From: Limisphaerales bacterium
GTDB taxonomy: Bacteria; Patescibacteriota; Microgenomatia; UBA1400; PJMF01
NCBI GenBank assembly: GCA_044350895.1
Contig: JBILGT010000002.1
Coordinates: 36,554-100,553, forward strand
DNA: 64,000 nt
Direction: 5' to 3'
Part shown: one piece after another, positions 2,912 through 41,214 of the stretch
How positions within the stretch are numbered: position 1 is the stretch's first letter
Layout of the letters: each line of letters opens with the position of its first letter
The notes under the pieces: model-generated
The model's database searches: none
Seen by the model: the letters and a program-made list of their open reading frames with translations, nothing else
What the model was told of the DNA's origin: nothing
Program-made: the position numbers and the translations under genes

Positions 2912-4207
2912 ATGAAAAGAATACACAAATTTATAGTGAGTGCTAGTCTTTTCTTTGTTTTGATCCTCCAAAGCTTTATACAACCCCACACTGTCCGCGC
3001 AGCTGAGGCATGTCCTGGTACAACTGAAGGTTTTGGTGTTGAGCTACCACCCTATACCACAGACCTAAAACATACCGTTAAATTTGATACAACAAATTGG
3101 AGTAAAGATTACAAATATTTTATTGTGATTCGTTCAAGAGAATATGTTCCAGATATTGGTACTCGCAATGTAGAAGCAGATTCACCAGCATTTAAATTAG
3201 GAGCCGACACGTCTGTTTCAGATAGTGATGGGAAAGTTACTCTCACAGGTTCCCAATTAACATACGAAATAACATCAAGTTGGGCACTGCAAAATCGCAA
3301 TAATTCTTATGATTATCAAGATAAACATTATGTAGAAATCCATCGATACGCAACTGTTGCGATTGGCAACACCTGGAACTACTTCTGTAGCGGAGGAACG
3401 TACACCACTTCACCAGGCATCAAAGGCTGCAAGATTACTGTTTACCAGAATCGCTCTGATCAAGGTGGACAAGCATGTTATCTAGGCGGCAGCAATAGTT
3501 GTATTCAAACAAGTAGCAGTGAACAGGTGAATGTTCGGGTTGATAATTTAAAATACTCTGACGGCAAGGTTGTGGATGGTCTTGAAGTAAGCTTTGTGTT
3601 TGGGCAACCTGGCATGGGGGTAGCACCCGACTCTTTCCAAACAATCAGGAATGGTTCTGCTGCCGGTGCGTTTTACCCAAATGGGAGAGGCACCTTTAGT
3701 ATTCAACTGAGAATGCGTCGCTGGGGCATCAACTATGATATTCCAGGATGTTACAGAGAAATCGAAGTTGAAGAAGTCTGTAATGATAAATGCAACAAAA
3801 CTGAGACAAGTACTGATAGTACTGAGAATCTTGATATAGTTTCTGTTTTTCAAATTTGTTCTCAAATTAGTAACACTGAACTTAAGGCAAAATGTGAGGA
3901 GTGTGCCGGTGGCCCAGATGGTCGTAAGGGTGTTTGGACGGCGGTGGGGTGTATTGAACGCGATCCACAAAATATAGTGCAGCGCTTTATTGAGATTGGG
4001 CTAGGTGTAGGAGGCGGTATCTGCTTACTAATGACACTGGCCGCAGGCTTTATGATTACCACTTCTCAAGGTGATCCGAAACAGTTCAACGAAGCTAAAG
4101 ACATGATTACTTCAGCAATTGTTGGATTATTGTTTATAATTTTCTCAGTGTTCATTTTACAATTTATAGGTGTGACAGTCCTGCAAATTCCAGGATTTGG
4201 AAGCTAA
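2912..4207 (+). CDS. secreted protein with large N-terminal extracellular domain fused to a C-terminal VirB2/TrbC-like pilin-type two-helix domain
   Basis: Signal peptide (MKRIHKFIVSASLFFVLILQSFIQPHTVRA). The C-terminus '...GLGVGGGICLLMTLAAGFMITTSQGDPKQFNEAKDMITSAIVGLLFIIFSVFILQF...' has the same TM1-(G/S)GDxxK...A(K/R)(N/D)-xxxSAIxGL-TM2 architecture as the pilin array at 9.6-14.4 kb. Confidence 0.5.
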   Translation: MKRIHKFIVSASLFFVLILQSFIQPHTVRAAEACPGTTEGFGVELPPYTTDLKHTVKFDTTNWSKDYKYFIVIRSREYVPDIGTRNVEADSPAFKLGADTSVSDSDGKVTLTGSQLTYEITSSWALQNRNNSYDYQDKHYVEIHRYATVAIGNTWNYFCSGGTYTTSPGIKGCKITVYQNRSDQGGQACYLGGSNSCIQTSSSEQVNVRVDNLKYSDGKVVDGLEVSFVFGQPGMGVAPDSFQTIRNGSAAGAFYPNGRGTFSIQLRMRRWGINYDIPGCYREIEVEEVCNDKCNKTETSTDSTENLDIVSVFQICSQISNTELKAKCEECAGGPDGRKGVWTAVGCIERDPQNIVQRFIEIGLGVGGGICLLMTLAAGFMITTSQGDPKQFNEAKDMITSAIVGLLFIIFSVFILQFIGVTVLQIPGFGS

Positions 4208-4217
4208 TCATATATCT

Positions 4218-5534
4218 ATGAACAAATTACGACTCTTTATCTTCACCACACTGATATTTTTGTTTACGTTCTTTATTCAAACTACTACCGTGCATGCTGC
4301 GATAGGTGCTGACTGTGGCAATCATGGAAGATGTGGGGGTACATCAGATGGTTGTGGTGCAAACGAAATTTGTATTGATGCTACCGTCTGGGATACACAA
4401 GGTGGTAAGTGTGAAGCGTCAAACGGACGCTGTGAGAATCGAGATGATTCAAGGAATGAAGTCTGCGGCTATACTGATGGTCTCCTGCATGGCACAGATC
4501 AATGGTGTGGAGCCCGCGGCGGCTGCGCCACAGGATACCTGTGTAATAGCACTTCTAAAAAATGTGAGCTTAATAATGGGGATACTGCTGGAGGCGCCGT
4601 TGGCTCAGCATGTGCAAATATCCAGGAAGTATATGATAGCCAGTGTGGCTACTGGACTTCCAATCAATGTGGCGCAGCTGGCGTTTGTCAGACCGGGTAT
4701 CGCTGCGTTGCTGTGACCTCAATCATTAGCCGAACTGGCTATGCCTGTAGACCAGATCCCACAGATGAACCCAATAAATGTCCAGGGTCTCCTACACAAC
4801 CTGCAGTTGCATTGAGCTGTGGTGAATCTTCTGACAACCCAAATGCAACGTGCAGTTGTTCAGGCACTGGTGCTGGACTTGTTGACTTGGCCTACGGCAA
4901 AAAGTGTTGTGGCTGGAAACTAAATGGTGGAGCTGACTGTGGTGCAACAAGCCCCACTACCCCCCTCCTGTGTGGCCAAACTTCTGCAAATAGTACGGCA
5001 ACCTGTGGTTGTACAGGAGCAACTCTCACTCGGAATACCAATGTCGACGCAACAACAGAACGCAATCAAATGTACTGTTGTGGGTGGATAAACGGCAAAA
5101 GTTGCGGAAGTACCAAACCAGCCACCCCAGTAGATCCAGCAAATCCTGTTGATCCTACAGATCCTGGAACAGGTGGTGCTGATGACACGACAACTTTAGA
5201 TATTTTTGCAGGTCCGAATTCTGAAGACTTTAAACTACTCAATCCTATTGCAAACTTCAGTACTGATGCCGCAGCGCGAGCTTCATTTACCTCTCCTGGT
5301 GGAATTATTTCGCGGGTGCTTCTCTTTGCATTTCCAATTGCAGGATTAATCCTGTTTGTAATGCTAGTCATTGCAGGATTCCAGATTGTAGCTGGGGCAG
5401 CATCAAGTGGCAGTAAATCAATTGATGCTGGTAAACAACGTGCCAGCAATGCACTCCTTGGCTTTGTGCTACTCTTCGTTGCCTACTGGGTAATGCAGAT
5501 TATTGAAACAATTTTTGGAATTACGATTCTCTAA
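4218..5534 (+). CDS. cysteine-rich secreted modular protein, Pro-rich linker, C-terminal VirB2/TrbC-like pilin-type domain
   Basis: Probable start at 4218 (MNKLRLFIFTTLIFLFTFFIQTTTVHA signal peptide) rather than the track start 4197. Repeated CG..G.C..GY.C and C.C.G.G....CCGW modules, a PxDPxNP linker, and C-terminal '...FPIAGLILFVMLVIAGFQIVAGAASSGSKSIDAGKQRASNALLGFVLLFVAYWVMQI...'. Confidence 0.5.
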   Translation: MNKLRLFIFTTLIFLFTFFIQTTTVHAAIGADCGNHGRCGGTSDGCGANEICIDATVWDTQGGKCEASNGRCENRDDSRNEVCGYTDGLLHGTDQWCGARGGCATGYLCNSTSKKCELNNGDTAGGAVGSACANIQEVYDSQCGYWTSNQCGAAGVCQTGYRCVAVTSIISRTGYACRPDPTDEPNKCPGSPTQPAVALSCGESSDNPNATCSCSGTGAGLVDLAYGKKCCGWKLNGGADCGATSPTTPLLCGQTSANSTATCGCTGATLTRNTNVDATTERNQMYCCGWINGKSCGSTKPATPVDPANPVDPTDPGTGGADDTTTLDIFAGPNSEDFKLLNPIANFSTDAAARASFTSPGGIISRVLLFAFPIAGLILFVMLVIAGFQIVAGAASSGSKSIDAGKQRASNALLGFVLLFVAYWVMQIIETIFGITIL

Positions 5535-5559
5535 AATTTATCAGAAAAAGTTTTATAGT

Positions 5560-6273
5560 TTACTTGCCGAATCTTCGTTTGCGTGATGCATATTCTTCTA
5601 AAAGTTCGTCAAACTTCTCAGGGGTAAATTCTGGAAAATAAAATTTTGGGAATGCTAACTCAGCATACTCACTTTGCCAAAGCAAAAATCCAGAGCTGCG
5701 GTGCTCACCACTCGTGCGAATAATGAAGTCTGGATCAGGGATACCTACTGTATCAAGTGCTTGTTCAACTTCTTCTTTTGTAATTGGTTTTGTTGTAGTC
5801 GTTACCCCTGACGCTTCGCGTGCTGCAACCAAACTATTTACGGTTCTTAAAAGCTCATCTCTTCCACCGTAGTTCATTGCAAAAATGACGGTGATACCAG
5901 TATTATCTTTGGTCAGATCAATTCCCCGCTGTATTCGTTCCTGGATCTCAGAATCAAATTTAGAGATATCACCAATTGTTTTTACACGGACATTTTTTTC
6001 GTGGAACTTTGGTACAAATACATCAAAAACTTCTTTGAAAAGATCAAGCAAGTATTCAACTTCACGTTTGTCACGCTGCCAATTTTCAGTACTAAAAATC
6101 CAAAATGTTATATAGCGAACACCTCTAGCATGAGCGTGATCAACGAGTGGCTCAAAAACAGCATCTACAGCTCGTCTGTGGCCCAACAAAACCTCCAGTT
6201 TATGCTCTCTCGCCCAACGTCGGTTGCCATCACAAATAATTGCTACATGTTCTGGAAGTGTGTTGTCAGACAT
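5560..6273 (-). CDS. uppS: isoprenyl transferase (undecaprenyl diphosphate synthase)
   Basis: 'HVAIICDGNRRWAREH...' and the rest of the cis-prenyltransferase family signature. 237 aa is the typical length. Confidence 0.9.
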   Translation of the reverse strand: MSDNTLPEHVAIICDGNRRWAREHKLEVLLGHRRAVDAVFEPLVDHAHARGVRYITFWIFSTENWQRDKREVEYLLDLFKEVFDVFVPKFHEKNVRVKTIGDISKFDSEIQERIQRGIDLTKDNTGITVIFAMNYGGRDELLRTVNSLVAAREASGVTTTTKPITKEEVEQALDTVGIPDPDFIIRTSGEHRSSGFLLWQSEYAELAFPKFYFPEFTPEKFDELLEEYASRKRRFGK

Positions 6274-6275
6274 AG

Positions 6276-7079
6276 TTACTTTGTAATTGCAGTTCCTACT
6301 ACAGTATCACCAATAAGAGAGTGAAATAATGCATCTTTTTTTAGGCCTGAGATAATGCCCACCTGCATTCCTGCAGCAGCAAGTTTCATTGATTCTTCAA
6401 TTTTATGTGCCATGCCACCAGTTACATCAAATCCTTTTGTGACTCCAATTAGCTTTTCCACTTCTCTGATATTTTCTTCAGTGATGTGCGGAATTACTGC
6501 GCCAGATGCATCAAGTACACCCGCCACTTCAGTGACATGAATAATTTTCTGAATACTGTATTTATCTGAATCAATAAAGTGCTCAGCAATGTATCCTAGT
6601 ATTTTTTCAGTAGACCAAATTGTACATCCTTTAGTACTATCCACTAATACATCTCCACCTGTAATTGGGACCATGCCTTTTGCCAGATATTCCTCAAGGA
6701 CATCGCCACACCAGTGTTTGGCTTTGTCTGAATCAGTTACCATGGAATTACTGAAGTAAAAACTTACTGCGGGGATTGAGTGTGCCAAGAACTCTTGCAC
6801 CACAATTCGATTGAGTTGTGCAGCACTATCTTGAGTTACCGCCATACCCATTCTACTGTCTTCATTGATGAATCCATCCATTGTCTTGTAACGCAGTGCA
6901 GGTGCATGTGCGAAACTACCTTGACCATGTCCCACAATATACAAACCACCAGTTTGATGTTGGGCACGAACAATTTCAGTCACGAGCTGTTTGAGGACAT
7001 CTGCTCGTACCATCATCGGAACTTCTTTATTTGTGATGATTGAGCCACCGAGTTTGATGAGTGTAAGTTTTTGTTTCAT
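6276..7079 (-). CDS. ipk: isopentenyl phosphate kinase (amino-acid kinase family)
   Basis: N-terminal 'LIKLGGS', internal 'VGHGQGSFAHAP', C-terminal 'DVTGGMAHKIEE', all as in archaeal IPK. 267 aa. 4-bp overlap with uppS. Confidence 0.7.
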   Translation of the reverse strand: MKQKLTLIKLGGSIITNKEVPMMVRADVLKQLVTEIVRAQHQTGGLYIVGHGQGSFAHAPALRYKTMDGFINEDSRMGMAVTQDSAAQLNRIVVQEFLAHSIPAVSFYFSNSMVTDSDKAKHWCGDVLEEYLAKGMVPITGGDVLVDSTKGCTIWSTEKILGYIAEHFIDSDKYSIQKIIHVTEVAGVLDASGAVIPHITEENIREVEKLIGVTKGFDVTGGMAHKIEESMKLAAAGMQVGIISGLKKDALFHSLIGDTVVGTAITK

Positions 7080-7621
7080 TCAGTTGCTCCTTGTTGTAAT
7101 AATCCTTCGGCAAGAATTCTTTGTGCAGCAATATACACATATGGACGTAAAATTTTTGGACCTTCTGTCTCAAGAAAATCTGGTAATGCGATGGTTGCAA
7201 TAGTGATACTTGGGTACTTATTTTTCAAATACACCAGCTCCGCTTCTGTCAAAGTTACTTTATGACCTACAGCATCAAAGACAACGGTTCCAGGTTTGTT
7301 GACTTTACGTTGCTCCACCCGAACTATAGGGAGACCATTGCTTATTCGATTCAGGGTGAGAGGTAAACCACGCTCCTCAAAACTTTCACGAACAATTGTA
7401 GTCCTCATATCAGCATGTTCACCATCCTCTACACCGCCACCAATCATGCAAAACATTCCTGCTAGCAAACTCACCCATTCTGAGAAAAGTTCAGAATTTG
7501 GAATTCTCTCCTGTTTTCCGGCATCTTCAGGATGAACCCCAAAAAAAATTGTGCCGTCATTAGTTGGATTCATCAGCCAAGCATATGCTCCCAAATGTAT
7601 TTTTTCTGTGGAATTAGACAT
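7076..7621 (-). CDS. Nudix hydrolase
   Basis: Nudix box-like 'GGGVEDGEHADMRTTIVRESFEERGL'. 4-bp overlap with ipk and 2 bp from idi, so operonic. Confidence 0.5.
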   Translation of the reverse strand: MSNSTEKIHLGAYAWLMNPTNDGTIFFGVHPEDAGKQERIPNSELFSEWVSLLAGMFCMIGGGVEDGEHADMRTTIVRESFEERGLPLTLNRISNGLPIVRVEQRKVNKPGTVVFDAVGHKVTLTEAELVYLKNKYPSITIATIALPDFLETEGPKILRPYVYIAAQRILAEGLLQQGATE

Positions 7622-7622
7622 A

Positions 7623-8216
7623 TTATTTTTCTCCTAAGTTTTTAGACAATTTCAGTAATAGGTCATTTCTCTCTAGCATAATCACAAACCAGGGCGCCCA
7701 GTCTTTACTCACTGCTCTATCACACACTTTTTCCCAGCTCACCCACTCAATTGCAGCAACTTCATCAGGATTCGGCGCAACAGTTCCCTCAAACCACCCC
7801 ATAAATACTTGATCAATTTCGTTTTCACTAAACTCATCGTTACATCGTACTTGGTACTGAAACTTCTCAACTGGGTGCAACTCAATTGGCTTTCCATTTT
7901 CATCATTTGTAATACCTAATTCAGCTTCCAATCTTCGCCGAGCGCAGGCTTCATAACTTTCATCTGGCCACACATTCCCACAAGCAGTATTTGCCCACTG
8001 TAATGTACCCACAATTTTTTTGGCACTTCTCTGCTGAATAAGCAGTTCATACTCGCCCGAAGCATTTTCTCTAAACATGAAAACAGAAATTGCCCGGTGC
8101 AGTTTTCCTTCGCCTCGATGCGCCTCAAGTTTATCCATTGATCCAATCACCACATCGTCAGAGGTCACCAAAGTTACAAGATCAGTTTGTGGAATTTGAT
8201 TAGACAAGTTGTTCAT
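7623..8216 (-). CDS. idi: isopentenyl-diphosphate delta-isomerase, type 1 (Nudix fold)
   Basis: 'LHRAISVFMFRE...ELLIQQRSAKK...WANTACGNVWPDESYEACARRRLEAELGI' matches the type-1 IDI pattern (HRAFSVF...QQR...NTCCSHP...E.E). Confidence 0.75.
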   Translation of the reverse strand: MNNLSNQIPQTDLVTLVTSDDVVIGSMDKLEAHRGEGKLHRAISVFMFRENASGEYELLIQQRSAKKIVGTLQWANTACGNVWPDESYEACARRRLEAELGITNDENGKPIELHPVEKFQYQVRCNDEFSENEIDQVFMGWFEGTVAPNPDEVAAIEWVSWEKVCDRAVSKDWAPWFVIMLERNDLLLKLSKNLGEK

Positions 8217-8463
8217 GTTCCTCTGCTTGATCTACTAAAATAAATAGCGCAGGAAGCAACAATCCTGCTTCAGGTAGTGACGCTTTCGCTTTTGGTATTT
8301 CTTTTCGTTTTACCAATTGATCAGTAGATAACTTATAATTACCAGGATATCCACCCCATAACAATTGTTCTTTATTTCTCCAACATGACCGTTCGATTGA
8401 CATACATAGTATTAGTCGCAAAAGCATAGCAAAATCATGCACTCAAAAATAAATTGAGAGAGG

Positions 8464-8802
8464 TTACTCGGAAAAAGCTATCCAGAAGCGGATCAATAAG
8501 TAAAACAATAAAATTTGCCAATATACACAAAAAAGCACCAACCAATTTGCAAAAAATGGGATCAGATCACAACCAAAAAAGCTGGTAGTTTGACAAGAAA
8601 AAATAAACCGGACTGCTGGCACAACCAGAAAAAACCAGACAATTTTTGCCAAAACATACACGGCCACTGGCAAGAAAGTCATCCAGGCAAATACTCTCTC
8701 TCGAGTCAGCGACTGCATTGTTTGATATGGGTGCAGTAACAGACCACCAGTGATCTGTGCAACAGAGTATATGAATGAAGCAAGGAACGCGCGGTTGTTC
8801 AT
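8464..8802 (-). CDS. small polytopic membrane protein (3-4 TM), function unknown
   Basis: Hydrophobic throughout. 4-bp overlap with the upstream 71-aa ORF, so it is the third gene of the sigma-factor operon. Confidence 0.35.
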   Translation of the reverse strand: MNNRAFLASFIYSVAQITGGLLLHPYQTMQSLTRERVFAWMTFLPVAVYVLAKIVWFFLVVPAVRFIFSCQTTSFFGCDLIPFFANWLVLFCVYWQILLFYLLIRFWIAFSE

Positions 8803-9014
8803 AATTTGATCCAGTTCAATGCTTCAAGACCAAATGCTGTTAAACCAGAGAGTACGGCGAGTACTTGCCAAGGATAGTTGCCTACAAATGCCGCAATGGA
8901 ATCAAGTTTATCGGGAAGGACTTTATTTGAGTGGAGTCGCGCCTGCATCTGGGCTTCAAACTGCAGCTTTGATAAAAAATCCATTTTTTGTGGTTCTTCA
9001 ACGGGTTGATCCAT
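8799..9014 (-). CDS. small single-pass membrane protein; candidate anti-sigma factor
   Basis: Immediately downstream of the ECF-like sigma gene (stop/start 4 bp apart). Has a cytoplasmic N-terminus and a C-terminal TM 'WQVLAVLSGLTAFGLEALNWI'. The assignment is by position only. Confidence 0.3.
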   Translation of the reverse strand: MDQPVEEPQKMDFLSKLQFEAQMQARLHSNKVLPDKLDSIAAFVGNYPWQVLAVLSGLTAFGLEALNWIKL

Positions 9015-9017
9015 AAA

Positions 9018-9602
9018 TTATGTGCTCTCTTGCTCCAAATATAGTAATCTAAATTGCTCACGTGCTCTGAATAACTCAGATTCCACTGATTTTACAGTTT
9101 TCCCCAGTTCAGTGGCAATTTGTGCCACTTTCTGGCTATCAACGTACTTTTTGAGCAAAAGTTCTCGAGAATATTCATTCATTTTTTTGAGTGCAACTAG
9201 GACACGAGCTGAAACTTCATGAGAATCTTCCACAGGACTTGAGAGCAACAGATGTGATAAAGCAGTGGTTTGAATTGCCTTTTTGGCATACATTTTTCGA
9301 TAAAAGTCAGCAACTTCATGTTTTGCGATAGCAGACATCCACGTCCAGAGACTCGCACTACCGTTATACAGGGACAAATTTTTTAGACAGTTTAAGAAAG
9401 TCTGCTGTGTCATTTCTTCAGCATCTTGGCTATTTTCCACTCTACTTTGAATGAATCTGAGGATTTTTTTATGAAAATGGTTAAACCAGTACTCGACGGC
9501 ATCTCGATCACCGAGTTTCAAAAGCTCTACTAGTTGCATTTCACTTTGTTGGTTCATACTACAGGAAGTATACTTTATTCTAGCTACACCGTATAATATC
9601 AT
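9018..9602 (-). CDS. RNA polymerase sigma factor, sigma-70/ECF family
   Basis: Region-2-like 'DAEEMTQQTFLNCLKNL' and a region-4 HTH 'SQKVAQIATELGKTVKSVESELFRAREQFR'. The likely true start is the internal Met at 9557 (MNQQSEMQLVELLK...). Confidence 0.65.
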   Translation of the reverse strand: MILYGVARIKYTSCSMNQQSEMQLVELLKLGDRDAVEYWFNHFHKKILRFIQSRVENSQDAEEMTQQTFLNCLKNLSLYNGSASLWTWMSAIAKHEVADFYRKMYAKKAIQTTALSHLLLSSPVEDSHEVSARVLVALKKMNEYSRELLLKKYVDSQKVAQIATELGKTVKSVESELFRAREQFRLLYLEQEST

Positions 9603-9606
9603 CCAT

Positions 9607-9966
9607 ATGTTTTTTCTAGTACAAAAAGTATATGCTGCAGGCTGCTCAGATCTAGACTATGGTTCTCCCGAACTTAATTTAGGCAGAGTGCTTTGCTTGA
9701 GCGACAGCACAGCTGTTGAAGATGTCTATAAAGATCCAGCATTTCTTGTCAACTTAATTGTTAGCAATTTATTTGTTTTTGCTGGAATAATAATTTTTCT
9801 TCTTATTTTTTACGCTGGATTTAAATTTATCTCTCAAGGAACTAAGGGCAAAGAGGAAGCAAAAGGGATCATTACTGCCGCTGTGACTGGCTTAGTATTG
9901 ATGTTTGCAGCATATTGGGTCCTCCAGATTGTAAAAACATTAACGGGGACTGACGTTGCACTCTAA
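9607..9966 (+). CDS. VirB2/TrbC-like pilin-type small membrane protein, paralog 1
   Basis: TM1 (LVNLIVSNLFVFAGIIIFLLIFYAGF), loop 'SQGTKGKEEAKG', TM2 (IITAAVTGLVLMFAAYWVLQIV). A TATAAT lies 12 bp upstream. Confidence 0.5.
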   Translation: MFFLVQKVYAAGCSDLDYGSPELNLGRVLCLSDSTAVEDVYKDPAFLVNLIVSNLFVFAGIIIFLLIFYAGFKFISQGTKGKEEAKGIITAAVTGLVLMFAAYWVLQIVKTLTGTDVAL

Positions 9967-9969
9967 ATT

Positions 9970-10419
9970 ATGAAAACAAATATAGTACTCAAAACTATTA
10001 GCTATATCTATCTTTTTGCTGTTATTATCAGTGCATTTTTCTGTATCCCAGGCCTCACCTTCGCACAAACTGCTGAAGACTTAGGGGTTGGAACAATTGC
10101 AGCCCCTCCTGGCGTGGATAAATATAATGCTGCCGCACAAGCGCAAGGTGCCGATATTGCGATCGTTTACTTTATGTCGAACATGATCAAGCTCTTTACG
10201 GTAGTTGCTGGAATCTGGGTAATTTTGAATGGCATTCTTGCAGGCTACTACTTTGTGCAATCAAGTGGAGACGCAGGCACCTATGAAAAAGCCCGTAATC
10301 AAATTACTCAAAGTGCCATTGGTCTTGCAATGATTGTACTTTCATATATGTTTACTGGGCTTGTTGGTTTACTTTTCTTTGGAGATGCGGGTATATTCTT
10401 AAATCCAAGGTTAAAATAG
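9970..10419 (+). CDS. VirB2/TrbC-like pilin-type small membrane protein, paralog 2
   Basis: Signal peptide plus 'VVAGIWVILNGILAGYYFVQSSGDAGTYEKARNQITQSAIGLAMIVLSYMFTGLVGLLFFGDAG'. Confidence 0.55.
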   Translation: MKTNIVLKTISYIYLFAVIISAFFCIPGLTFAQTAEDLGVGTIAAPPGVDKYNAAAQAQGADIAIVYFMSNMIKLFTVVAGIWVILNGILAGYYFVQSSGDAGTYEKARNQITQSAIGLAMIVLSYMFTGLVGLLFFGDAGIFLNPRLK

Positions 10420-10420
10420 T

Positions 10421-10969
10421 ATGAAACAGTTTATACTCAGCATCGTTGTTGCACTCTCAGTGCTATTCTTCGTCCCTACAGTGGCGCAAGCACAATCATG
10501 TCCTAGCAACCGGACTTGTAGTGGCGGTTGTACCGCTGTGGGCCAATGTGTTGGAAACAAACGATGTGTTAGTGTACAAGGCGTTATTTACCCTGGAACA
10601 GTTGATTGTGGTTCTGCCCAACTTGGCGGAGTTAAGCCACCTCCAGCTATTACTAGTTTTAATTTTCAAACTGGCTCTGCATCAGGCAATGGCATCATCC
10701 TCTTTTTATCTAGATTGATCAATCTTTTTGTCATAGTGTGTGGAATCTGGACAATGTTTAACTTTTTATATTCTGGATACATTCTAATTTCTTCTCAGTC
10801 AGATACTAAAAATCAAAGTGAAATAAAAGATAAATTAACAATGACAGCCATTGGCTTGGCTATTATTGCCGGAGCATACATAATCGCTGGACTAATCGGT
10901 CTTATTTTCTTTGGAGATGCGGGATATATTCTCAATCCGCAGCTCGTCAGCGCACTTGATAGAGGGTAA
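10421..10969 (+). CDS. VirB2/TrbC-like pilin-type small membrane protein, paralog 3 (with Cys-rich N-terminal extension)
   Basis: Signal peptide, a CPSNRTCSGGCTAVGQCVGNKRC module, then the shared two-helix domain ending 'IGLIFFGDAGYILNPQL' (same C-terminal tail as paralog 2). Confidence 0.55.
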   Translation: MKQFILSIVVALSVLFFVPTVAQAQSCPSNRTCSGGCTAVGQCVGNKRCVSVQGVIYPGTVDCGSAQLGGVKPPPAITSFNFQTGSASGNGIILFLSRLINLFVIVCGIWTMFNFLYSGYILISSQSDTKNQSEIKDKLTMTAIGLAIIAGAYIIAGLIGLIFFGDAGYILNPQLVSALDRG

Positions 10970-11025
10970 TATGGCTGGAAGATAGACTTTCTTCTGTCAT
11001 ATGGGTATAATTACAGGCGTACATT

Positions 11026-11406
11026 ATGATGATATACATAGCACAAAAACTTACCCAGTTCGGTTCTGGTTTTGCACCAGTTGTTGATACTGCATGGACA
11101 GATGGCTCAGATACAGAAGCAGGGGTACTTACCAATTTAGAAGCATTCATTTCACAAATCTTGGGACTGATTACAGTAATTGGTAGTTTGTTCTTTGTTA
11201 TCAACTTTCTCATGGCTGCCTTGAGCTGGATCACCGCAGCAGGTGACAGCGGCAAAATTCAAAAAGCTCGCGACCAGATGATTCAATCTACGTTGGGACT
11301 TGTTATTATGGTAGGCTCTTATGCAATAATTGGACTTATTGGATCAGTGGTTGGTATCGATATCTTACAACCAGGCCAAGCATTAAAGATGTTGATCCCA
11401 AGGTAA
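11026..11406 (+). CDS. VirB2/TrbC-like pilin-type small membrane protein, paralog 4
   Basis: 'WITAAGDSGKIQKARDQMIQSTLGLVIMVGSYAIIGLIG'. Confidence 0.55.
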   Translation: MMIYIAQKLTQFGSGFAPVVDTAWTDGSDTEAGVLTNLEAFISQILGLITVIGSLFFVINFLMAALSWITAAGDSGKIQKARDQMIQSTLGLVIMVGSYAIIGLIGSVVGIDILQPGQALKMLIPR

Positions 11407-11411
11407 ATTTA

Positions 11412-11840
11412 ATGTCATTAAACAAGTTACAAAAGACCATCTCATCAGTTACAACAACTACAGCACTTTTAGTGAGTAGTTCTACTTTGGCACTCGCTCA
11501 AACAGGCATAACCAATCCAGCAATTGGCATTTATGGTAAAGACCCAAATGCGGCCAAGGCCGGCACTTCATTTGCGGGGTATGTCGCTATCATGTGGAAA
11601 GCTATGATTTCAATTGGAGCATTACTAGTTCTCTTATACTTTGTATGGGGTGCAATCGATTGGATAACAGCCGCTGGAGATAAAGGTAAAATGGAAGGTG
11701 CCCGCAATAAAATGCTCAATGCCTTTATTGGTTTACTGCTATTGGTCAGCTCATACACCATAATTGCATTCGTTGGCTGGCTATTCTTTGGAACTGAATT
11801 CAACATCTTACAACCAATATTTATATTTAATAATCCATAA
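11412..11840 (+). CDS. VirB2/TrbC-like pilin-type small membrane protein, paralog 5
   Basis: Signal peptide plus 'WITAAGDKGKMEGARNKMLNAFIGLLLLVSSY'. Confidence 0.55.
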   Translation: MSLNKLQKTISSVTTTTALLVSSSTLALAQTGITNPAIGIYGKDPNAAKAGTSFAGYVAIMWKAMISIGALLVLLYFVWGAIDWITAAGDKGKMEGARNKMLNAFIGLLLLVSSYTIIAFVGWLFFGTEFNILQPIFIFNNP

Positions 11841-11845
11841 TATTT

Positions 11846-12187
11846 ATGCCAACACCAACAAAAATAGACTTACAAGGAGGCGCAATCCTCGCACAAATTC
11901 CAGGCACTGAGAACATGGAATCGCCAAATGCCGGCTTTGCCCGTCTTATTGGGAATATTCTTGCCGCAGTCATGGTTGTTTCATTACTCCTTGTTCTCTA
12001 CTTTTTAGTAGTTGGTGCAATTGAGTGGATTACGGCAGCTGGCGATAAAGGTAAAATTGATTCAGCACGTAACAAAATGACAAATGCTGTTATCGGCATC
12101 ATAGTTTTATCTTCCGTTACCGCACTATTTGCAGCTGTACAATATTTCTTAGGTGTCAATGTACTTACATTTTCATTTACCCCGTAA
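11846..12187 (+). CDS. VirB2/TrbC-like pilin-type small membrane protein, paralog 6
   Basis: 'WITAAGDKGKIDSARNKMTNAVIGIIVLSS'. Confidence 0.55.
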   Translation: MPTPTKIDLQGGAILAQIPGTENMESPNAGFARLIGNILAAVMVVSLLLVLYFLVVGAIEWITAAGDKGKIDSARNKMTNAVIGIIVLSSVTALFAAVQYFLGVNVLTFSFTP

Positions 12188-12325
12188 GGAGCGATTGATT
12201 CGCATACTTTAGAGTCTGGGTAAATCAAACTGGTACTTGCAAGCACTAAAAGTATATTGCTAAGCTATTACTTGACGGAGAGCATATAATATAATCTAGT
12301 GTAAGATACACTTACAAGGAGCAAG

Positions 12326-12739
12326 ATGATTGGTAAATTAAACACGGCATTAGTAGCCAGTACAGTAACTGGATTTTTAAGTGCACCAATTGCATTTGCA
12401 GTGGAACCTACTTCAGGAGTTACTTCAGCAGTTGGCACAGTCACAGCAGGAACTGGATGGGCAGATAACATCGGTGGTTTAATCACTAGTGTCTTAACTA
12501 TCGTCATGGTTGTTGCTATCCTACTCGTCTTACTCTACCTCATCATGGGTGGTATCGAATGGATCACATCTGGTGGTGATAAAGGTAAAACTGAAGGTGC
12601 TCGTAACAAAATTACCTCAGCTATCATTGGTATCATCATCTTGGCAGCAGCTTATGCGCTCGTCCAACTTGTCGCCTACGTATTAGGATTTGCAAGTCTG
12701 AACGCAGCTCTCGAATCATTACCTAGAATCGGTACGTAA
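12326..12739 (+). CDS. VirB2/TrbC-like pilin-type small membrane protein, paralog 7
   Basis: AAGGAG RBS 8 bp upstream of the ATG and a TATAAT around 12286. Signal peptide plus 'WITSGGDKGKTEGARNKITSAIIGIIILAAAYALVQLVAYVLGFASLNAAL'. Confidence 0.6.
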   Translation: MIGKLNTALVASTVTGFLSAPIAFAVEPTSGVTSAVGTVTAGTGWADNIGGLITSVLTIVMVVAILLVLLYLIMGGIEWITSGGDKGKTEGARNKITSAIIGIIILAAAYALVQLVAYVLGFASLNAALESLPRIGT

Positions 12740-13179
12740 TAACAATAATAATGAATTTAATTAAAAGGAGTTACATGTTAAATAAAATTCAAAAAGCAGC
12801 AGCAGCAACTGCGGGAGTCGCAGCCAGCTTACTAACCACTGCAGTAGCATACGCTAAAGATACCAGTGCTATAGGCACAGTCACACCAGGTACAGGTTGG
12901 GCAGATAACATCGGTGTTTTAATCACCAGTGTCCTCACCATCGTCATGGTTGTTGCTATCTTGCTCGTCTTACTTTACCTCATCATGGGTGGTATCGAAT
13001 GGATCACATCTGGTGGTGACAAAGGTAAAACTGAAGGTGCTCGTAACAAAATTACTTCAGCTATCATCGGTATTATCATCTTGGCCGCATCATATGCACT
13101 CGTCCAACTTGTCGCCTACGTCTTAGGATTTGCAAGTCTTAATGCCGCCCTGCTCTCATTGCCTCAAATCGGTAAGTAA
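12433..13179 (+). repeat. tandem duplication (~300 bp units, ~440 bp period) of pilin-type gene bodies
   Basis: 12461-12739 and 12901-13179 align base-for-base with only scattered substitutions (e.g. gcagataacatcggtg[g/t]tttaatcac...). Confidence 0.8.
12751..13179 (+). CDS. VirB2/TrbC-like pilin-type small membrane protein, paralog 8 (near-identical tandem copy of paralog 7)
   Basis: The probable true start is 12775 (AAAGGAG RBS just upstream; MLNKIQKAAAATAGVAASLLTTAVAYA signal peptide). The mature domain is about 90% identical at DNA level to paralog 7. Confidence 0.6.
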   Translation: MNLIKRSYMLNKIQKAAAATAGVAASLLTTAVAYAKDTSAIGTVTPGTGWADNIGVLITSVLTIVMVVAILLVLLYLIMGGIEWITSGGDKGKTEGARNKITSAIIGIIILAASYALVQLVAYVLGFASLNAALLSLPQIGK

Positions 13180-13202
13180 TATTTTTAAAATTAGAATTTC
13201 AG

Positions 13203-13230
13203 AAACCCCCATCTTGTATGGGGGTTTTTG
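13203..13230 (+). terminator. rho-independent terminator after pilin paralog 8
   Basis: AAACCCCCA-tcttgta-TGGGGGTTT followed by a T-run. Confidence 0.7.
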
Positions 13231-13266
13231 GTATATTAGGTGTGTTTGTTACACATTTGACCCACT

Positions 13267-13821
13267 TTGATGTATAATGTAAGTCTAATGAAAAAAGCCG
13301 TTATATCACTTGTATTAGTACTCATATTTAATTTTTTAGCTGTATTTAGCAATCCCATAGTATTCGCAGCAGACGAGGTAAAATTAGTCAAAGATGGTAG
13401 TACCTACTATCTGAGTACTGAAGGTTCTGCATCCACCACGCGCAGTGGACAAACCTATCGTCTTGTTCCTGTTGAGCAAACCGCCGCAACCAGTGCTGCA
13501 AAAACAGCATCTCGTTCAGCAGTTGTTCCGCCTCCTGGATATGTAGGTAATATTGGAGAGCTTATCAGCTTCTTACTTAAGTTGGTAATGATTGTGGCAA
13601 TTTTACTTATTCTTCTCGCCTTTATCACCGCTGGTTTTGAGTGGATTACATCTGGAGGTGACAAAGGTAAAACTGAAAGTGCCCGAAACCGCATTGTCGC
13701 AGCTTTTGTTGGTGTACTCATCTTATCTGCCGCATACGCATTAACACTACTCGTTGCCTATGTTCTTGGTTTTGATAGTATTGATGATGTTTTTGGCAGC
13801 ATTAAGCGAATTAATCCATAG
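13267..13821 (+). CDS. VirB2/TrbC-like pilin-type small membrane protein, paralog 9
   Basis: Probable start 13288 (MKKAVISLVLVLIFNFLAVFSNPIVFA). 'WITSGGDKGKTESARNRIVAAFVGVLILSAAYALTLLVAYVLGF'. Confidence 0.55.
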   Translation: MMYNVSLMKKAVISLVLVLIFNFLAVFSNPIVFAADEVKLVKDGSTYYLSTEGSASTTRSGQTYRLVPVEQTAATSAAKTASRSAVVPPPGYVGNIGELISFLLKLVMIVAILLILLAFITAGFEWITSGGDKGKTESARNRIVAAFVGVLILSAAYALTLLVAYVLGFDSIDDVFGSIKRINP

Positions 13822-13844
13822 GTCACAAACTCTACATTCACTTC

Positions 13845-14372
13845 TTGCTGTTCTATCAGGTATACTATAGAGATTCAAAATCTATGCGCCGTAACACATT
13901 TACCTATCAAGTAATTTCATTTTTTAGAGCTGCAATCTTCAGTGTCGCACTACTTGCAAACGTCGCTGGCCCAGTCTACGCCCAAACCCAGGCTTGGTCA
14001 GGTGTGTGTGTCGGCCCAGCTCAGATTAATGCAGCAACGAAAGCCAATGATGTTGCTACTATCCAAGGCGTTCAGTGTCTACTTGCCAATGTATTTACTG
14101 TGATCATAACAATCGTCGGTCTGGCAGGATTTGTCATGTTTATTGTAGGTGCCTTTAGATATTTGGTTTCTGGCTCAAATAGCAAGGGTATTGAAGCCGC
14201 CAAAAATACCATTCAATACATGGTGATCGGCATTATTGTAACGCTCAGTGGTTTCATCATTCTGAATATGATTTCTTCATTCACCGGAATCGACGTCATT
14301 ACTCGATTTGTTATTCCAAGTTCAGATCGTGGTACTTCTGCAGATGACTATCCAATTCCAGTTGGAATGTAA
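13845..14372 (+). CDS. VirB2/TrbC-like pilin-type small membrane protein, paralog 10 (divergent)
   Basis: Probable start 13884 (MRRNTF...signal peptide). 'IVGLAGFVMFIVGAFRYLVSGSNSKGIEAAKNTIQYMVIGIIVTLSGFIILNMI'. Confidence 0.45.
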   Translation: MLFYQVYYRDSKSMRRNTFTYQVISFFRAAIFSVALLANVAGPVYAQTQAWSGVCVGPAQINAATKANDVATIQGVQCLLANVFTVIITIVGLAGFVMFIVGAFRYLVSGSNSKGIEAAKNTIQYMVIGIIVTLSGFIILNMISSFTGIDVITRFVIPSSDRGTSADDYPIPVGM

Positions 14373-14459: not shown

Positions 14460-17400
14460 ATGATCAAACTCACGGGTATGAGGTTGTTTTTTTTGTGTGT
14501 GAGTTTTGTCGTGGGATTAATTAGCAGCGCCACATTAGTCTACGCGCAATCCAGCAATTTTGCTTCCTTCAAAGAAGATCTCGACTTTGTCCGTTCTCAA
14601 AGTGCTGCGGTACTTCTCTTTACACCACTTGGCTCCAACCCTGATCCTAACTTCAAAAAGCATGCGCTCAGCATGCAGCAAGTTCAAACACTCTGTGGTC
14701 AAACCGGAGACTGCGGAAACCTCGGTATTAACTTTGCCACAATGTTTAAGAAAGGTCAGTACGACAAGCTCAAGCAACTTAATATGCACTGGGCACTCGA
14801 AATCGCAGAGAAAGGTCGTGAAGCCAATGCTGCATCCGCCATTAATGAAAATCCCGATGCTCGAATTATTGTCCGTATTGGTGTAGCTGGTAATTCTGGA
14901 GGATTTGCTGACTACAACGGGAATGCAGCAGATTATATCGAGTTTCTTAAAAATCTTTCTGGTCAGGTGGGTGGCAAAGAATTTTACGCCATTGCAGGTC
15001 CAAATGAGCCAGATATCGAAAAGTGGATTGATCCCAATTGTGGAAGTGCACCGGGAGTTGAGTCAGCAGATTCACAGAAATTTTTTGATTGTGTGGGGCC
15101 AAAATTAACGCAGTATATGAACGCTGTGTGCGCCGCCAATCTCCCCAGTAATATCAAACTCCTCACTCCTGCTTTCAACATGACTTCATATAGCTTCCCC
15201 GGAATTGTCGCAGCCATGGAAAAATCAGGGGCAAACTGGAAGTGTTTCGCAGATCGCCAAACTGGTTTTGCAGGCAACCTCTACCCTGCCGGAAAAGCCA
15301 TGAAAGCATACTGGAATGATGACTACACAGGAAAAACAATTCAATTTTTACAGAGCAAAGGTTTGAAGGTATATATAACTGAGACAGGACCACACACTGC
15401 AATCAGCGCCCAAGATGTAAATGCTACAGCCCATGATTTTAGCGAGTTCTACATCCACCCAATCAAAGGAATTACTGGAGGTGATAAAAATATCATTCGT
15501 GATGATTTGGTTCGGCAAGGCTATGAAGCACGCTGTGCGGCCCCTGGATTTAATATTGAACTAGGTCAAGATGGCATTGAATGGATGGAAAAATATCTTA
15601 AATGTCGCGATGATGGCAAATGTAATGATGGAGATGTTGGCGATGGAGCTTCTTTTGGAGGAGAGACCATTCAACAATTTACAGCCACAATGAATGAGCA
15701 TACCTCCATTGGTCAAAGAGTGCTTTCAATTCTATCAATCGACTATCGAGACTCACTGATCCCTGTTTTTAGAGATGTTGACCAAGTCCCACAACTGAAA
15801 CGGTCACTTGAGGATTATTTTGGCTACAGAGAACCCGCCAACGACCAATATAACCTTGCTGAACTTAGATCTTCAGCTATAAATTCACTCCTCACAACCA
15901 ACCAACGATGCACCCAATCTGCTATCTCACTCTTACAAAGAGACGAAATGTGTAAAAAGCTACAAGATCCGACTAAATGTGCGCTGTACGAATCAAAAGT
16001 GCCTGAGACCCAACTTACCGTAAAACAACTTCTAGATGCATACAATGCTTATGCAGGAATTTCCACTGACCATGACGCCACGTGCTCAAAAATAACTGGA
16101 GGAGCTGATACAGAACTGCGTCGTGGAATGCTTAATCTGCCACTGCAAATTGATAACGCGTATCGCCTCGCATTTCTCGTTACCACAATCAGAACTAGAG
16201 TTCCGCTGGCTGGAGATATGATGAACTTGTTCCAACATCCACACCGTGGAGAACTCAATGAAGCCCCCGATCCTGCCCACGTCGTAATTGTGACAGCATT
16301 TAAAATACCTGATATCACAACAAATAAAGGCACAATTGACACACAAGGTGAACCAAAAAGCGGTCATACAGACTTCAATGACCCAGCTATGTTGACTCGC
16401 GATGTACTTATCCCAAGTACCATCAAACAAGAACTCGACAGGAGAGGTGATCTTGAACGTAAGAGATTACTCAATATGGGTCAAGTGATTGCAGACCAGG
16501 ATCAAGATGATAAAACAATGGAAATTGCCTGTCGCATCAAAGGTGTTGGTGGACAACAATGTCTCGATCCTTTAACTAGTGCGCTGGTGGATATTATCAA
16601 CGCACAATCACTCATTGAGACTGAGAATGAACAACTTATTGAAAAAGCTGTCGGGACAGATGTCTATACTGCTGTAGAAAAAGAACAGATGTTCAAACTC
16701 AACTGTGACGATGCTCCAACTGAAGAACCCACCTATATATTTGATCCAGGTGAGCTACAGCCACTCAACAATGCCGGCCGCGTATTCAAAACTGACTTTG
16801 GCGTAGCGATTTTGGAAAATCTTTTCACCGATGAATCACACATGAGACCAGGAACTTTTGAGTATGATCCTACCTATGCTGATACTGAGAGTAATAAAAA
16901 ATCAGCCCCCGGTGGTTTCCACTGGGGACTTAAGTCAGTTTTCCATGTCACTAGTGACAACACGTTTGGACCAACAGATACCAGCCGTTCTGTGAAACAT
17001 TTCATCGTCTACCCTGAAGGGTACGACCTTAAAACTGTTGAAGCGGTTATGTCGGGCACATTCTTTACGACACAACAAATTGTGGCATTGAGGGATAAGG
17101 CTCTTGATTATCAACGATTCATGATTAAAGACGACAAAATTTTATTTGATGGCGGCGAAATTTCCCACTCATTTACCGACTATACAGTGGAATACGATGA
17201 GGGCTATTGCGATACAACCTACTATAATTCTGCTGGAGAACTCAAACGTACACCTCCTTGTCCCACAGGTTCATTCGGCTTCAGACTTTTTGCCAGTAAA
17301 GATCCCACTTCAGCAGGAATTCTGGGAGGTAGACTTGGATTTTGGATGCACACCATTCAGCTCACCCTGCAACGAGCAGAAGCACTCACCCACAAATATC

Positions 17401-35923: not shown

Positions 35924-35984
35924 AATGACTTTTTTAATAAAGCCACTTTTACTCTGAGGTAAAATACAAGTACAATAGAAACCA

Positions 35985-39675: not shown

Positions 39676-39943
39676 CCCAGGAGTTTTTCACACCTGTTGA
39701 AAACTTTGTGAATAACTTATGCATAACCTAGTGGACAGAATGTGCATGATTTTTACTGAATGTGTGCAACAGAAAGTTACTCACACAGCTGGACACAGCA
39801 ATTCACATTAGTTATTAACATTCACAAGCGGCGTGAGTTCACATATAATCCACAGTATTGCAACCAGATCAGAAAGCCGTCCTTTTCAACAAAGCGCAAC
39901 TAGCCTACTATTACTACAACTAAATTTATATATATAAAGTTTT
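39676..39943. promoter_or_regulatory. candidate oriC (dnaA-dnaN intergenic): degenerate DnaA boxes plus AT-rich unwinding element
   Basis: TGTGAATAA (39707-39715) and TAATCCACA (39846-39854) are each one mismatch from TTATCCACA/TGTGGATAA. AT-run 'taaatttatatatataaagttttat' at ~39920-39945. An additional TGTGTATAA lies upstream of dnaA at 38079-38087. Confidence 0.5.
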
Positions 39944-41053: not shown

Positions 41054-41076
41054 TCTGCTATAATACCTTTTCTGTT

Positions 41077-41214
41077 ATGACAAAACGTACCTGGAACCCA
41101 AAAAAGAAAAAACGAGCTCGTAAACACGGCTTCTTAAAACGCATGCTATCAGTTGGTGGCAGAAACGTTTTAAAGCGTCGTCGTGCAAAAGGTCGTCAAC
41201 GACTTGCTGTCTAA
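41077..41214 (+). CDS. rpmH: 50S ribosomal protein L34
   Basis: Translated by hand: [45 protein letters not shown]. Below the ORF-track size cutoff. Confidence 0.85.

Follow-up and report, generated by a model that had tools for sequence, protein, structure and literature searches.

A divergent Nudix-fold protein as the genomic partner of isopentenyl phosphate kinase in a reduced isoprenoid operon of Microgenomates-type CPR bacteria

The gene directly upstream of isopentenyl phosphate kinase (IPK) in the 64-kb stretch of DNA analyzed here (the window) encodes a divergent Nudix-fold protein, referred to as ORF2, whose family accompanies IPK in the genome as a dedicated partner. The two genes belong to a set of four on the minus strand, in the order idi-nudix-ipk-uppS, which encode a type-1 isopentenyl-diphosphate isomerase of the Nudix superfamily (IDI-1, 197 aa, positions 7623-8216), the IPK-associated ORF2, a putative diphosphate hydrolase (181 aa, 7076-7621), IPK, which has the amino-acid-kinase fold (267 aa, 6276-7079), and a predicted cis-prenyltransferase, or UppS-type polyprenyl-diphosphate synthase (237 aa, 5560-6273). 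All four open reading frames have been confirmed at these coordinates, and profile scores and structure matches agree with the identities given to them in the initial annotation. The overlaps of 2-4 bp that it reported between the genes apply to ORF2 and IPK, which share 4 nt (7076-7079), but not to IDI-1 and ORF2, which are separated by 1 nt, or to IPK and UppS, which are separated by 2 nt. Relatives with a Nudix protein 52-84% identical to that of the window have the genes in the same order, and the arrangement is therefore conserved and not a product of chance. The four-gene set is best explained as the terminal isoprenoid (lipid-carrier) operon that Microgenomates-type CPR typically have, reduced from their mevalonate gene cluster. 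Scans of positions 5300-9800 for promoters and terminators returned fewer sites than were found in shuffled controls.

The core of this operon (IDI, IPK, and UppS) is already known and is ordinary for the lineage, since the synteny of IPK with IDI-I and cis-IPPS in CPR/Microgenomates was published in 2018 (Hoshino & Gaucher 2018, Mol Biol Evol, PMC6107057) and the IMG automatic annotation names all four genes, with ORF2 listed as an 8-oxo-dGTP pyrophosphatase MutT. The new point is the partnership between ORF2 and IPK. According to PMC6107057, the synteny of IPK, IDI-I, and cis-IPPS in CPR holds even in species without most of the mevalonate (MVA) genes; the CPR IPK is described as uncharacterized, its function is left open, and its characterization is called "critical". 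That a bacterial IPK should point to an archaeal-like route or to scavenging, as the initial annotation held, is reasonable but not new. The text of PMC6107057 contains neither the word "Nudix" nor the word "hydrolase" (0 occurrences of each), and a search of the literature found no paper describing an ORF2-type Nudix/IPK pairing.

The identity of IPK is well established, as the initial annotation held, and the outcome that it named as a refutation, a grouping with acetylglutamate kinases, is not favored. The protein scores 174 bits against NF040647 (IPPK_Arch, equivalog cutoff 120), matches PF00696, and contains both the KLGGS and the DVTGGM motifs, while the scores for other amino-acid-kinase subfamilies (FosC 45.6, FomA 27.4, and ArgB ~21) are all far under their own cutoffs. 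The top matches in a search of solved structures in the PDB are all IPKs, with E-values from 2.5e-28 to 6e-21, compared to 6e-5 for acetylglutamate kinase (NAGK). Equivalents of the M. jannaschii residues K6, G8, H60, S158, and K221, numbered from the alignment to the 3K4O sequence, are present and, like the two motifs, invariant across ~80 relatives. The residues of the C5 pocket are M/T/I, and both a C5-sized pocket and the catalytic residues are kept in all groups. The relatives of this IPK carry the names Woesebacteria, Pacebacteria, Microgenomates, or Patescibacteria.

IDI-1 scores 129.6 bits against NF002995 (cutoff 127), 71.7 against Pfam NUDIX, and 102.7 against TIGR02150, just under the cutoff of 105.8, and its alignment to the E. 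coli and human IDI-1 (1I9A/1NFS) spans the full length. Equivalents of H25, H32, C67, E87, Y104, E114, E116, and W161 (E. coli numbering) are all present. The residues C79, E133, and Y121, which align with the catalytic Cys67, Glu116, and Tyr104, are invariant in 19 CPR IDIs. The metal-ligand set H25, H32, H69, E114, and E116 is incomplete, with H69 replaced by Asn (WANTACGN) and the other four ligands kept. This replacement (CGN) is common to the close clade; the sequence at this place in distant CPR IDIs is CGH or CTH. The product of 5560-6273 scores 226.9 bits against TIGR00055 (cutoff 109.6) and 233.8 against PF01255, and the motifs DGNRRWA and RTSGE..S.FLLWQ are visible in its alignment to 1F75. 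Its top PDB match is the M. luteus UPPS (4e-55), with short-chain cis-prenyltransferases close behind (~1e-47); judged by its sequence, it is a UppS-type cis-prenyltransferase, and its matches are compatible with more than one product chain length.

ORF2 shows the Nudix alpha/beta/alpha fold in an AF2 model built on an alignment of 43 sequences and in fold and profile comparisons. The model has no membrane segment, and the protein looks soluble. The family is small: a set of 1.84 billion proteins contains 39 of its clusters at the 50% identity level. The Nudix box of the window protein reads G62-x5-E68-x9-R78E79-xx-E82E83-x-G85L86, compared to the consensus GX5EX7REUXEEXGU, and contains a two-residue insertion (x9 vs x7); the canonical spacing of x7 is kept in most of the family. 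The window protein scores 18.7 bits against PF00293, under the Pfam gathering threshold of 21.1, and 30 of 43 family members match this profile at E <= 0.01 (best 7e-11). R78, E79, and E83 are invariant in the family. ORF2 has the appearance of a catalytically competent, highly divergent Nudix hydrolase. Its similarity to other Nudix proteins is generic and is specific neither to prenyl-diphosphate Nudix enzymes nor to the plant NUDX1/3 clade. A recent duplicate of IDI-1, or an alternative isomerase, was also considered for ORF2 and rejected. The profile-profile match to IDI-1 is generic (prob 68%), the catalytic Cys and the His ligands of IDI are missing, and the hydrolase-type RE..EE box is retained.

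The comparison of gene neighborhoods covered 74 CPR species loci, for the retrieval of which IPK was used. IPK is directly preceded by a member of the ORF2 family in 24 of these loci and by a gene for a fusion of a Zn ribbon with an ORF2-like domain in another 8 (together 32/74). The fusion protein is homologous to ORF2 (hhalign prob 94.9%, E 4e-8), and its ribbon is of the DUF35 type. The start of IPK often overlaps the stop of the preceding gene by 4 nt. The reverse direction was covered by the genomic context of 5 distant ORF2-family members, a sample independent of the IPK search. All five genes lie directly upstream of a gene on the same strand, which encodes an AA_kinase in four cases and is unannotated and cut by the contig end in the fifth; with this one neighbor truncated, no examined member of the family is placed away from an IPK gene. 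ORF2-IPK pairs also exist without IDI or UppS within 10 kb (L037, L044, L047, L048, L053, L054, and L058), and the link of ORF2 is therefore to IPK itself. The ORF2-IPK loci L090 and L091 are likewise without UppS, and an MFS transporter is located directly upstream of the pair in L048, L053, L090, and L091. Among large contigs, DASPLQ010000012 (1.41 Mb) carries the order IDI-ORF2-IPK-UppS and LCLP01000001 (573 kb) carries ORF2-IPK only. The connection between the Nudix protein and IPK that was originally drawn from the window thus stands as a gene pair conserved across Microgenomates.

Based on these observations, we propose that ORF2 yields a prenyl monophosphate for IPK within this reduced mevalonate-cluster operon and that the pair feeds or balances the IP/IPP pool, a proposal that we favor with moderate confidence. 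ORF2 would cleave the diphosphate linkage of IPP/DMAPP, or of an imported or conjugated isopentenyl diphosphate compound, to give a prenyl monophosphate. IPK would then convert isopentenyl phosphate (IP) to IPP, IDI-1 would interconvert IPP and DMAPP, and the cis-prenyltransferase would make the polyprenyl diphosphate that serves as the carrier for cell-wall synthesis. Since IPK acts on IP or DMAP, the presumed product of ORF2, the two enzymes may together feed or balance the pool, although the direction of the flux and the source of IP are likewise presumed. Promiscuous hydrolysis of prenyl diphosphates is a feature of several bacterial Nudix enzymes, including E. coli NudB, NudI, and NudJ and B. 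subtilis NudF. On the other hand, a kinase and a phosphatase acting on one metabolite in one operon amount to a futile cycle, which is odd for a reduced genome, and the window contains no trans-prenyltransferase to give UppS its allylic primer. The insertion in the Nudix box and the sub-threshold Pfam score of the window ORF2 also speak against the proposal.

In the window, as in many relatives, ORF2 and UppS are encoded in one operon, and a conversion from diphosphate to monophosphate suits Nudix chemistry. ORF2 could then act at the product end of the operon as a cytoplasmic phosphatase of polyprenyl diphosphates (e.g., C55-PP), turning the UppS product into the monophosphate carrier. However, the conserved partner is IPK and not UppS, which is missing within 10 kb from the seven loci listed above and is missing from L090 and L091 as well, and a soluble-looking protein whose model has no membrane segment is not what this role would suggest. 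We consider it highly improbable.

The possibility that ORF2 is an unrelated housekeeping enzyme, such as a MutT-like nucleotide sanitizer, or a non-catalytic Nudix-fold subunit or regulator that was inherited in a syntenic block is in agreement with its IMG name and with the synteny that relatives also show for the genes around it (sigma factor, small ORFs, SpoIID, and Fic). Weakly related "A5-type" proteins encoded upstream of IPK, a type also found on the 938-kb chromosome OZ246401.1, have RG..EE in place of RE..EE, which counts in the same direction. However, the pairing with IPK outlasts rearrangements that drop IDI, UppS, and the sigma block, and the Zn-ribbon fusions hold the same position. 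The family is tiny, the members examined are all beside IPK (one neighbor being cut by the contig end), and the catalytic residues of ORF2 are conserved, all of which make this explanation very unlikely.

A specific sub-case of our proposal, and the idea put forward in the initial annotation, is a regulatory cycle like that of plants, in which the Nudix protein would convert IPP/DMAPP to IP/DMAP and IPK would re-phosphorylate these, tuning the IPP:DMAPP pool for the cis-prenyltransferase. Plant cytosolic IPK and the Nudix enzymes NUDX1/NUDX3 reportedly form such an IP/IPP cycle (Henry et al. 2015, 2018). Both systems pair IPK with a Nudix hydrolase, a putative one in the present case, where the pairing is one of genomic linkage. 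Plants have canonical Nudix enzymes, whose genes are not linked to that of IPK, whereas the genes described here form a translationally coupled operon and the Nudix protein belongs to a separate, divergent family. The conserved adjacency of the Nudix and IPK genes, together with IDI and UppS, the conserved catalytic glutamates of the Nudix box, and the existence of a plant literature on IPK/NUDX pairing are consistent with such a cycle. However, ORF2 resembles Nudix proteins in general and not the plant NUDX1/3 clade in particular, the cycle would waste ATP in a minimal genome, and it leaves unexplained both the adjacent MFS transporter and the exclusion of MVD-like genes described below. This version of the proposal is possible but doubtful.

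The full CPR clusters run HMGR-HMGS-thiolase-DUF35-MVK-MVD-like-IPK. The window locus comes from the same lineage as the published CPR/Microgenomates cluster (PMC6107057) and agrees with it in three enzymes and in synteny, and related loci in our sample reproduce that cluster. In contrast to it, the window locus lacks HMGR, HMGS, thiolase, MVK, and the MVD-like gene and has IDI and the Nudix gene directly upstream of IPK. The slot directly upstream of IPK is occupied by the Nudix gene (with IDI) in the lineage of the window and by the MVD-like decarboxylase in the full CPR clusters. MVD-like genes are present at 0/39 loci with ORF2 or the fusion and at 10/35 of the others (Fisher p = 2.6e-4, uncorrected for phylogeny), an exclusion that may be due to no more than the presence of two lineages.

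Searches of the 64-kb window found no gene of the mevalonate or MEP pathways and none for a trans-prenyltransferase, and neither MVK nor an IP-forming decarboxylase was found in the window, in the flanks of its close relatives, or at any ORF2-type locus. A query with the HMGS of the nearest MVA-bearing relative gave more than 8,000 matches, and none of the best 120 lies on the known contigs of 119,181, 351,653, and 1,409,795 bp. The haloarchaeal/Chloroflexi-type alternative pathway, as it is outlined in PMC6107057 with reference to Dellas et al. (2013), proceeds from MVK to a phosphomevalonate decarboxylase and then to IPK. Compared to this outline, the last step is the same, with an archaeal-type IPK that has conserved catalytic residues, and other Microgenomates loci with MVK-MVD-like-IPK in a row fit the route, but the window and the ORF2-type loci are without MVK or the defining decarboxylase.

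The mutual exclusion of ORF2-type and MVD-like genes, which occupy the same slot upstream of IPK, the MFS-ORF2-IPK arrangements, and the absence of MVA and MEP genes from the window would be accounted for by a salvage or bypass route. Lineages without the decarboxylase would import a host-derived isoprenoid precursor, from which the Nudix protein would produce IP/DMAP and IPK would produce IPP, and the pair would replace MVD and IPK as the source of IPP. The published CPR species that have IPK and IDI without most MVA genes (PMC6107057) fit this route as well. However, a candidate substrate is lacking, one locus (L013) has HMGR-HMGS-thiolase beside IPK and Nudix-type neighbors too, and the exclusion may be purely phylogenetic, so salvage seems rather unlikely. 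It is also unlikely that ORF2 and IPK constitute an unrecognized two-step route to IPP in Microgenomates that lack the decarboxylase, and possibly the whole pathway, with a host-derived or otherwise unusual compound that contains isopentenyl diphosphate being imported (in some of them by the adjacent MFS transporter) and cleaved by the Nudix protein to isopentenyl or dimethylallyl phosphate, which IPK would re-phosphorylate.

What the CPR IPK does matters for understanding how ultra-small symbionts come by the isoprenoid carrier for peptidoglycan, and also for models of how the mevalonate pathway first evolved. The ORF2 partner makes this question concrete, since its translation is coupled to that of IPK, it is excluded from the decarboxylase loci, and it is sometimes fused to a Zn ribbon and sometimes preceded by an MFS gene. 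If the pair only balances IP and IPP, as our proposal allows, it would be a modest counterpart, in bacteria, of the plant cycle. The salvage route, if true, would give isoprenoid metabolism a new entry point and would explain the cell-wall lipid carrier of these symbionts without either canonical pathway.

Additional genes have been identified upstream of the operon, all on the minus strand. A small ORF of 67 aa (8200-8403) overlaps the start of IDI by 17 nt and is a possible fifth gene of the operon. The gene calls of the source assembly include it, as do those of relatives, and its N- and C-termini are conserved with those in L004. Its position is that of small Zn-ribbon (zf-ChsH2-like) ORFs in L014, L018, and L019, but an HMM built from those ORFs misses it among the 1,075 ORFs of the window, and its assignment as a degenerate DUF35/zf-ChsH2 Zn ribbon is not supported. 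The stretch from the sigma gene to the isoprenoid genes holds two further small ORFs (8464-9014), one encoding a hydrophobic protein of 112 aa that is probably a membrane protein and the other a protein of 71 aa, both without a Pfam match. Their order is kept in L001-L010 and others, and the 112-aa family is found upstream of IPK in 29 related loci. The sigma-70-family factor (9018-9602) contains regions 2 and 4 (PF04542 and PF08281), is found upstream of IPK in 43 related loci, and is possibly the start of the transcription unit. Searches of the 64-kb window for tRNA and Rfam families gave no match. The window also carries T4SS-pilin, VirB4/VirD4-like, and dnaA/dnaN genes, which, like the names of the IPK relatives, fit its origin in a Patescibacteria (CPR, Microgenomates-like) genome. 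The JGI assembly places radA on another contig, 9.3 kb in length.

The ORF listing places four minus-strand genes at exactly the coordinates given in the initial annotation (5560–8216), and profile searches return the families named there. The type-1 IPP isomerase (IDI; 7623–8216, 197 aa) scores 129.6 bits against NF002995 (cutoff 127), 102.7 against TIGR02150, slightly below its cutoff of 105.8, and 71.7 against the Pfam NUDIX profile. It is followed by ORF2 (7076–7621, 181 aa), a divergent Nudix-fold protein whose match to PF00293 is weak (18.7 bits, under the cutoff of 21.1). Isopentenyl phosphate kinase (IPK; 6276–7079, 267 aa) and the UppS-type cis-prenyltransferase (5560–6273, 237 aa) reach 174 bits against NF040647 IPPK_Arch (cutoff 120) and 226.9 bits against TIGR00055 (cutoff 109.6), respectively. 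The genes had been described as overlapping by 2–4 bp. They are indeed tightly packed, but only ORF2 and IPK overlap (4 nt, ATGA type, 7076–7079), since IDI/ORF2 and IPK/UppS are separated by 1-nt and 2-nt spacers.

The operon adds one more case to a pattern already published for CPR (Patescibacteria-type bacteria, including Microgenomates), and pipelines annotate it correctly: IMG had already assigned the same four names, with ORF2 as 'MutT (NUDIX family)'. Most Microgenomates have mevalonate (MVA) genes, and an archaeal-type IPK, stated to be uncharacterised, is also found in CPR (Hoshino & Gaucher 2018, PMC6107057). The IDI-IPK-UppS part belongs to this pattern because the same study reports that CPR IPK mostly lies in synteny with other MVA genes, that its synteny with IDI-I and cis-IPPS extends to species without most MVA genes, and that cis-IPPS clustering is characteristic of MVA genes in CPR (PMC6107057). 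Its text makes no mention of a Nudix hydrolase (PMC6107057), and the literature found on IPK with Nudix, Patescibacteria, Microgenomates or CPR consists of plant papers or unrelated work. The added finding is a dedicated Nudix partner of IPK, of which we could not find a description. Such a partner turns the question of the purpose of CPR IPK into a simple two-protein experiment.

The pairing has been examined in 80 species-level loci retrieved with the IPK alignment, 74 of them from CPR, using our own ORF calling, HMMs and clustering. Directly upstream of IPK, 24/74 CPR loci carry an ORF2-family member and 8/74 a 298-aa protein in which an N-terminal zf-ChsH2 Zn ribbon precedes an ORF2-like domain homologous to ORF2 (hhalign probability 94.9%, E 4e-8, 149 columns). 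Another 10/74 carry an 'A5-type' protein of about 214 aa with weak similarity around the Nudix box (hhalign probability 78.7%), in which RG..EE replaces RE..EE and a C-terminal Arg is invariant. The position is occupied by IDI-1 in 8/74, by an MVD-like decarboxylase in 7/74 and by something else in 12/74, several of these last proteins matching PF00293 weakly or clearly; it falls at a contig end in 5/74. The upstream gene commonly overlaps IPK by 4 nt. Close relatives keep the full order of sigma factor, 71-aa ORF, 112-aa ORF, small ORF, IDI, ORF2, IPK and UppS, and two loci (L013 and L040) have a canonical Nudix gene between IPK and UppS instead. These data show that in Microgenomates the Nudix and IPK genes form a conserved pair, often with translational coupling. 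The observation in the initial annotation is confirmed, and the interpretation attached to it has partial support.

In seven loci (L037, L044, L047, L048, L053, L054 and L058), neither IDI nor UppS lies within 10 kb of ORF2-IPK; therefore, ORF2 is linked to IPK and not to the operon as a whole. A polyprenyl-PP phosphatase role for the Nudix protein is less likely because of this linkage to IPK rather than UppS. In a reverse test of five distant ORF2 members, including some of the weakest matches, all five lie directly upstream of the next same-strand gene. This gene is an AA_kinase in 4/5, the fifth being cut by a contig end and lacking annotation. An unrelated, MutT-like housekeeping enzyme is also less likely, since the pairing persists where loci have been rearranged and none of the family members examined sits apart from an IPK gene.

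The ORF2 family is small. A word-indexed search finds five close homologues, and a profile search run exhaustively over 1.84 billion cluster representatives finds 39, 17 of them at E <= 1e-10. In a 43-sequence alignment the Nudix box residues R78, E79 and E83 are invariant or nearly so, and most members keep the canonical spacing G-x5-E-x7-RE-xx-EE-x-GL; the clade of the window's ORF2 has two additional residues ahead of RE. Other conserved motifs are ED-x-GK-x-E (residues 32–38), Q104 and LRP (158–160). ORF2 is a catalytically plausible Nudix protein. An IDI-like isomerase has been ruled out: a profile-profile comparison with CPR IDIs gives only a generic match (probability 68%), there is no conserved Cys/His, and the hydrolase-type RE..EE is kept.

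The three neighboring enzymes are clearly identified. IDI aligns end to end with the E. coli and human IDI-1, with counterparts of the catalytic Cys67, Glu116 and Tyr104 and four of the five metal ligands. The fifth, His69 (E. coli numbering), is Asn in the motif WANTACGN (codons C79-G80-N81, minus strand, 7976–7984). CGN occurs throughout the close Microgenomates IDI clade, and CGH or CTH takes its place in CPR IDIs that are more distant. The substitution looks like a lineage trait, not decay, and may reflect a different metal preference. For IPK, clustering with acetylglutamate (NAGK) or carbamate kinases had been raised as the counter-case, and it is not seen, because IPK sequences are the first six of the ten best matches among solved structures (2.5e-28 to 6e-21 versus 6e-5 for acetylglutamate kinase). 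K6, G8, H60, S158 and K221 are invariant among about 80 relatives and the M. jannaschii enzyme. The C5 tail pocket is lined by small-to-medium residues (Met/Thr/Ile in the window protein), which is consistent with a C5 substrate. In the UppS-type protein both DGNRRWA and RTSGE are present, and its closest match is M. luteus UPPS (4e-55); its product length cannot be called since short-chain cis-prenyltransferases score almost equally.

Full Microgenomates clusters have the order HMGR-HMGS-thiolase-DUF35-MVK-MVD-like-IPK-...-UppS-Fic, which fits a route through MVK, decarboxylase and IPK. ORF2-type/fused genes and MVD-like genes are both found in the slot directly upstream of IPK, and the two never occur in one locus (MVD-like in 0/39 versus 10/35 loci; Fisher p = 2.6e-4, without phylogenetic correction). 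ORF2-type and decarboxylase genes are thus mutually exclusive in these neighbourhoods. In four loci lacking IDI and UppS, an MFS transporter is the next same-strand gene upstream of Nudix-IPK (L048:8129-9322, L053:8203-9396, L090:2770-3969 and L091:2432-3631), and the Zn-ribbon-fusion loci have an MFS gene and a trans-prenyltransferase nearby. We propose that the Nudix protein would hydrolyse a diphosphate-containing compound, giving a prenyl monophosphate that IPK would then use as its substrate. The pair may form the plant-like IP/IPP balancing cycle suggested initially, which has precedent but would amount to futile cycling in an organism with a minimal genome. It may also provide a supply or salvage route in place of the decarboxylase, which better accounts for the MVD-like exclusion and the MFS neighbour but has no known substrate.

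A Pfam scan covered all window ORFs of about 140 aa or longer except the pilin blocks 2912–4207 and 9607–14372, whose products are T4SS-pilin or without Pfam marks. No mevalonate-pathway, MEP-pathway or trans-prenyltransferase genes were found among the scanned ORFs of the 64-kb window. The relevant contigs are absent from the best 120 of >8,000 matches of an HMGS search, which is uninformative on genome content.

In other Microgenomates, the IPK-associated Nudix domain either carries a fused zf-ChsH2 (DUF35-type) Zn ribbon or has one immediately before it (L021:9095-9991, L077:4664-5521, L088:4001-4681 (P0159) and L089:886-1092); the module is familiar from the thiolase/HMGS scaffold protein of archaea. 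The 67-aa window ORF in a comparable position (8200–8403) has no detectable homology to such Zn ribbons.

Head-to-tail upstream of the isoprenoid genes, on the minus strand (8464–9602), lie a sigma-70-family gene and two small ORFs, one of 71 aa and one of 112 aa whose product is hydrophobic and probably a membrane protein. The sigma gene is in the conserved upstream position in 43 related loci and the 112-aa ORF in 29; these genes could form a sigma/anti-sigma unit that is transcribed together with the lipid-carrier synthesis genes. About ten to a dozen small T4SS-pilin-like genes (PF18895) flank the operon on the plus strand (2912–5534 and 9607–14372), an arrangement also seen in related loci.

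The window organism is a CPR bacterium of Microgenomates type, and its IPK has relatives in MAGs of Woesebacteria, Pacebacteria, Microgenomates and Patescibacteria. The window also encodes SpoIID- and VanW-domain proteins, and tRNA and Rfam searches of it gave no matches. Three very long ORFs of 1408, 1560 and 1613 aa, the longest with a C-terminal M23 peptidase domain, and PrgI-like, VirB4/TraG-like and VirD4-like genes (14460–18686, 21515–26197 (minus), 27606–32447, 33494–38048 and 62204–63898 (minus)) look like a CPR-type T4SS-like apparatus. The minus-strand cluster at 50989–53970 recalls SipW/TasA fibre operons; besides two unknown ORFs, it has a pair of S24/S26 signal-peptidase-like genes and one encoding a camelysin/TasA-like Peptidase_M73 protein. 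The genes dnaA, dnaN, rnpA, yidC, a KH/R3H (Jag/KhpB-like) gene and RNase H (38152–43417) have an order typical of a replication-origin region, and the cumulative GC skew minimum is at about 50–58 kb, right of the dnaA region. In JGI sample 3300059473, radA (60728–62110, within 55100–64000) and its neighbours are on a separate 9,314-bp contig and IPK on a 119,181-bp contig, so the window stems from another assembly or one that is more contiguous. Many contigs with this locus, which is clearly of Patescibacteria type (L008, L009, L012, L015–L018 and others), bear names of unrelated taxa (uncultured Pseudomonadales or Gammaproteobacteria, Methylococcaceae, Vitreimonas), which is placeholder or mis-binned taxonomy.
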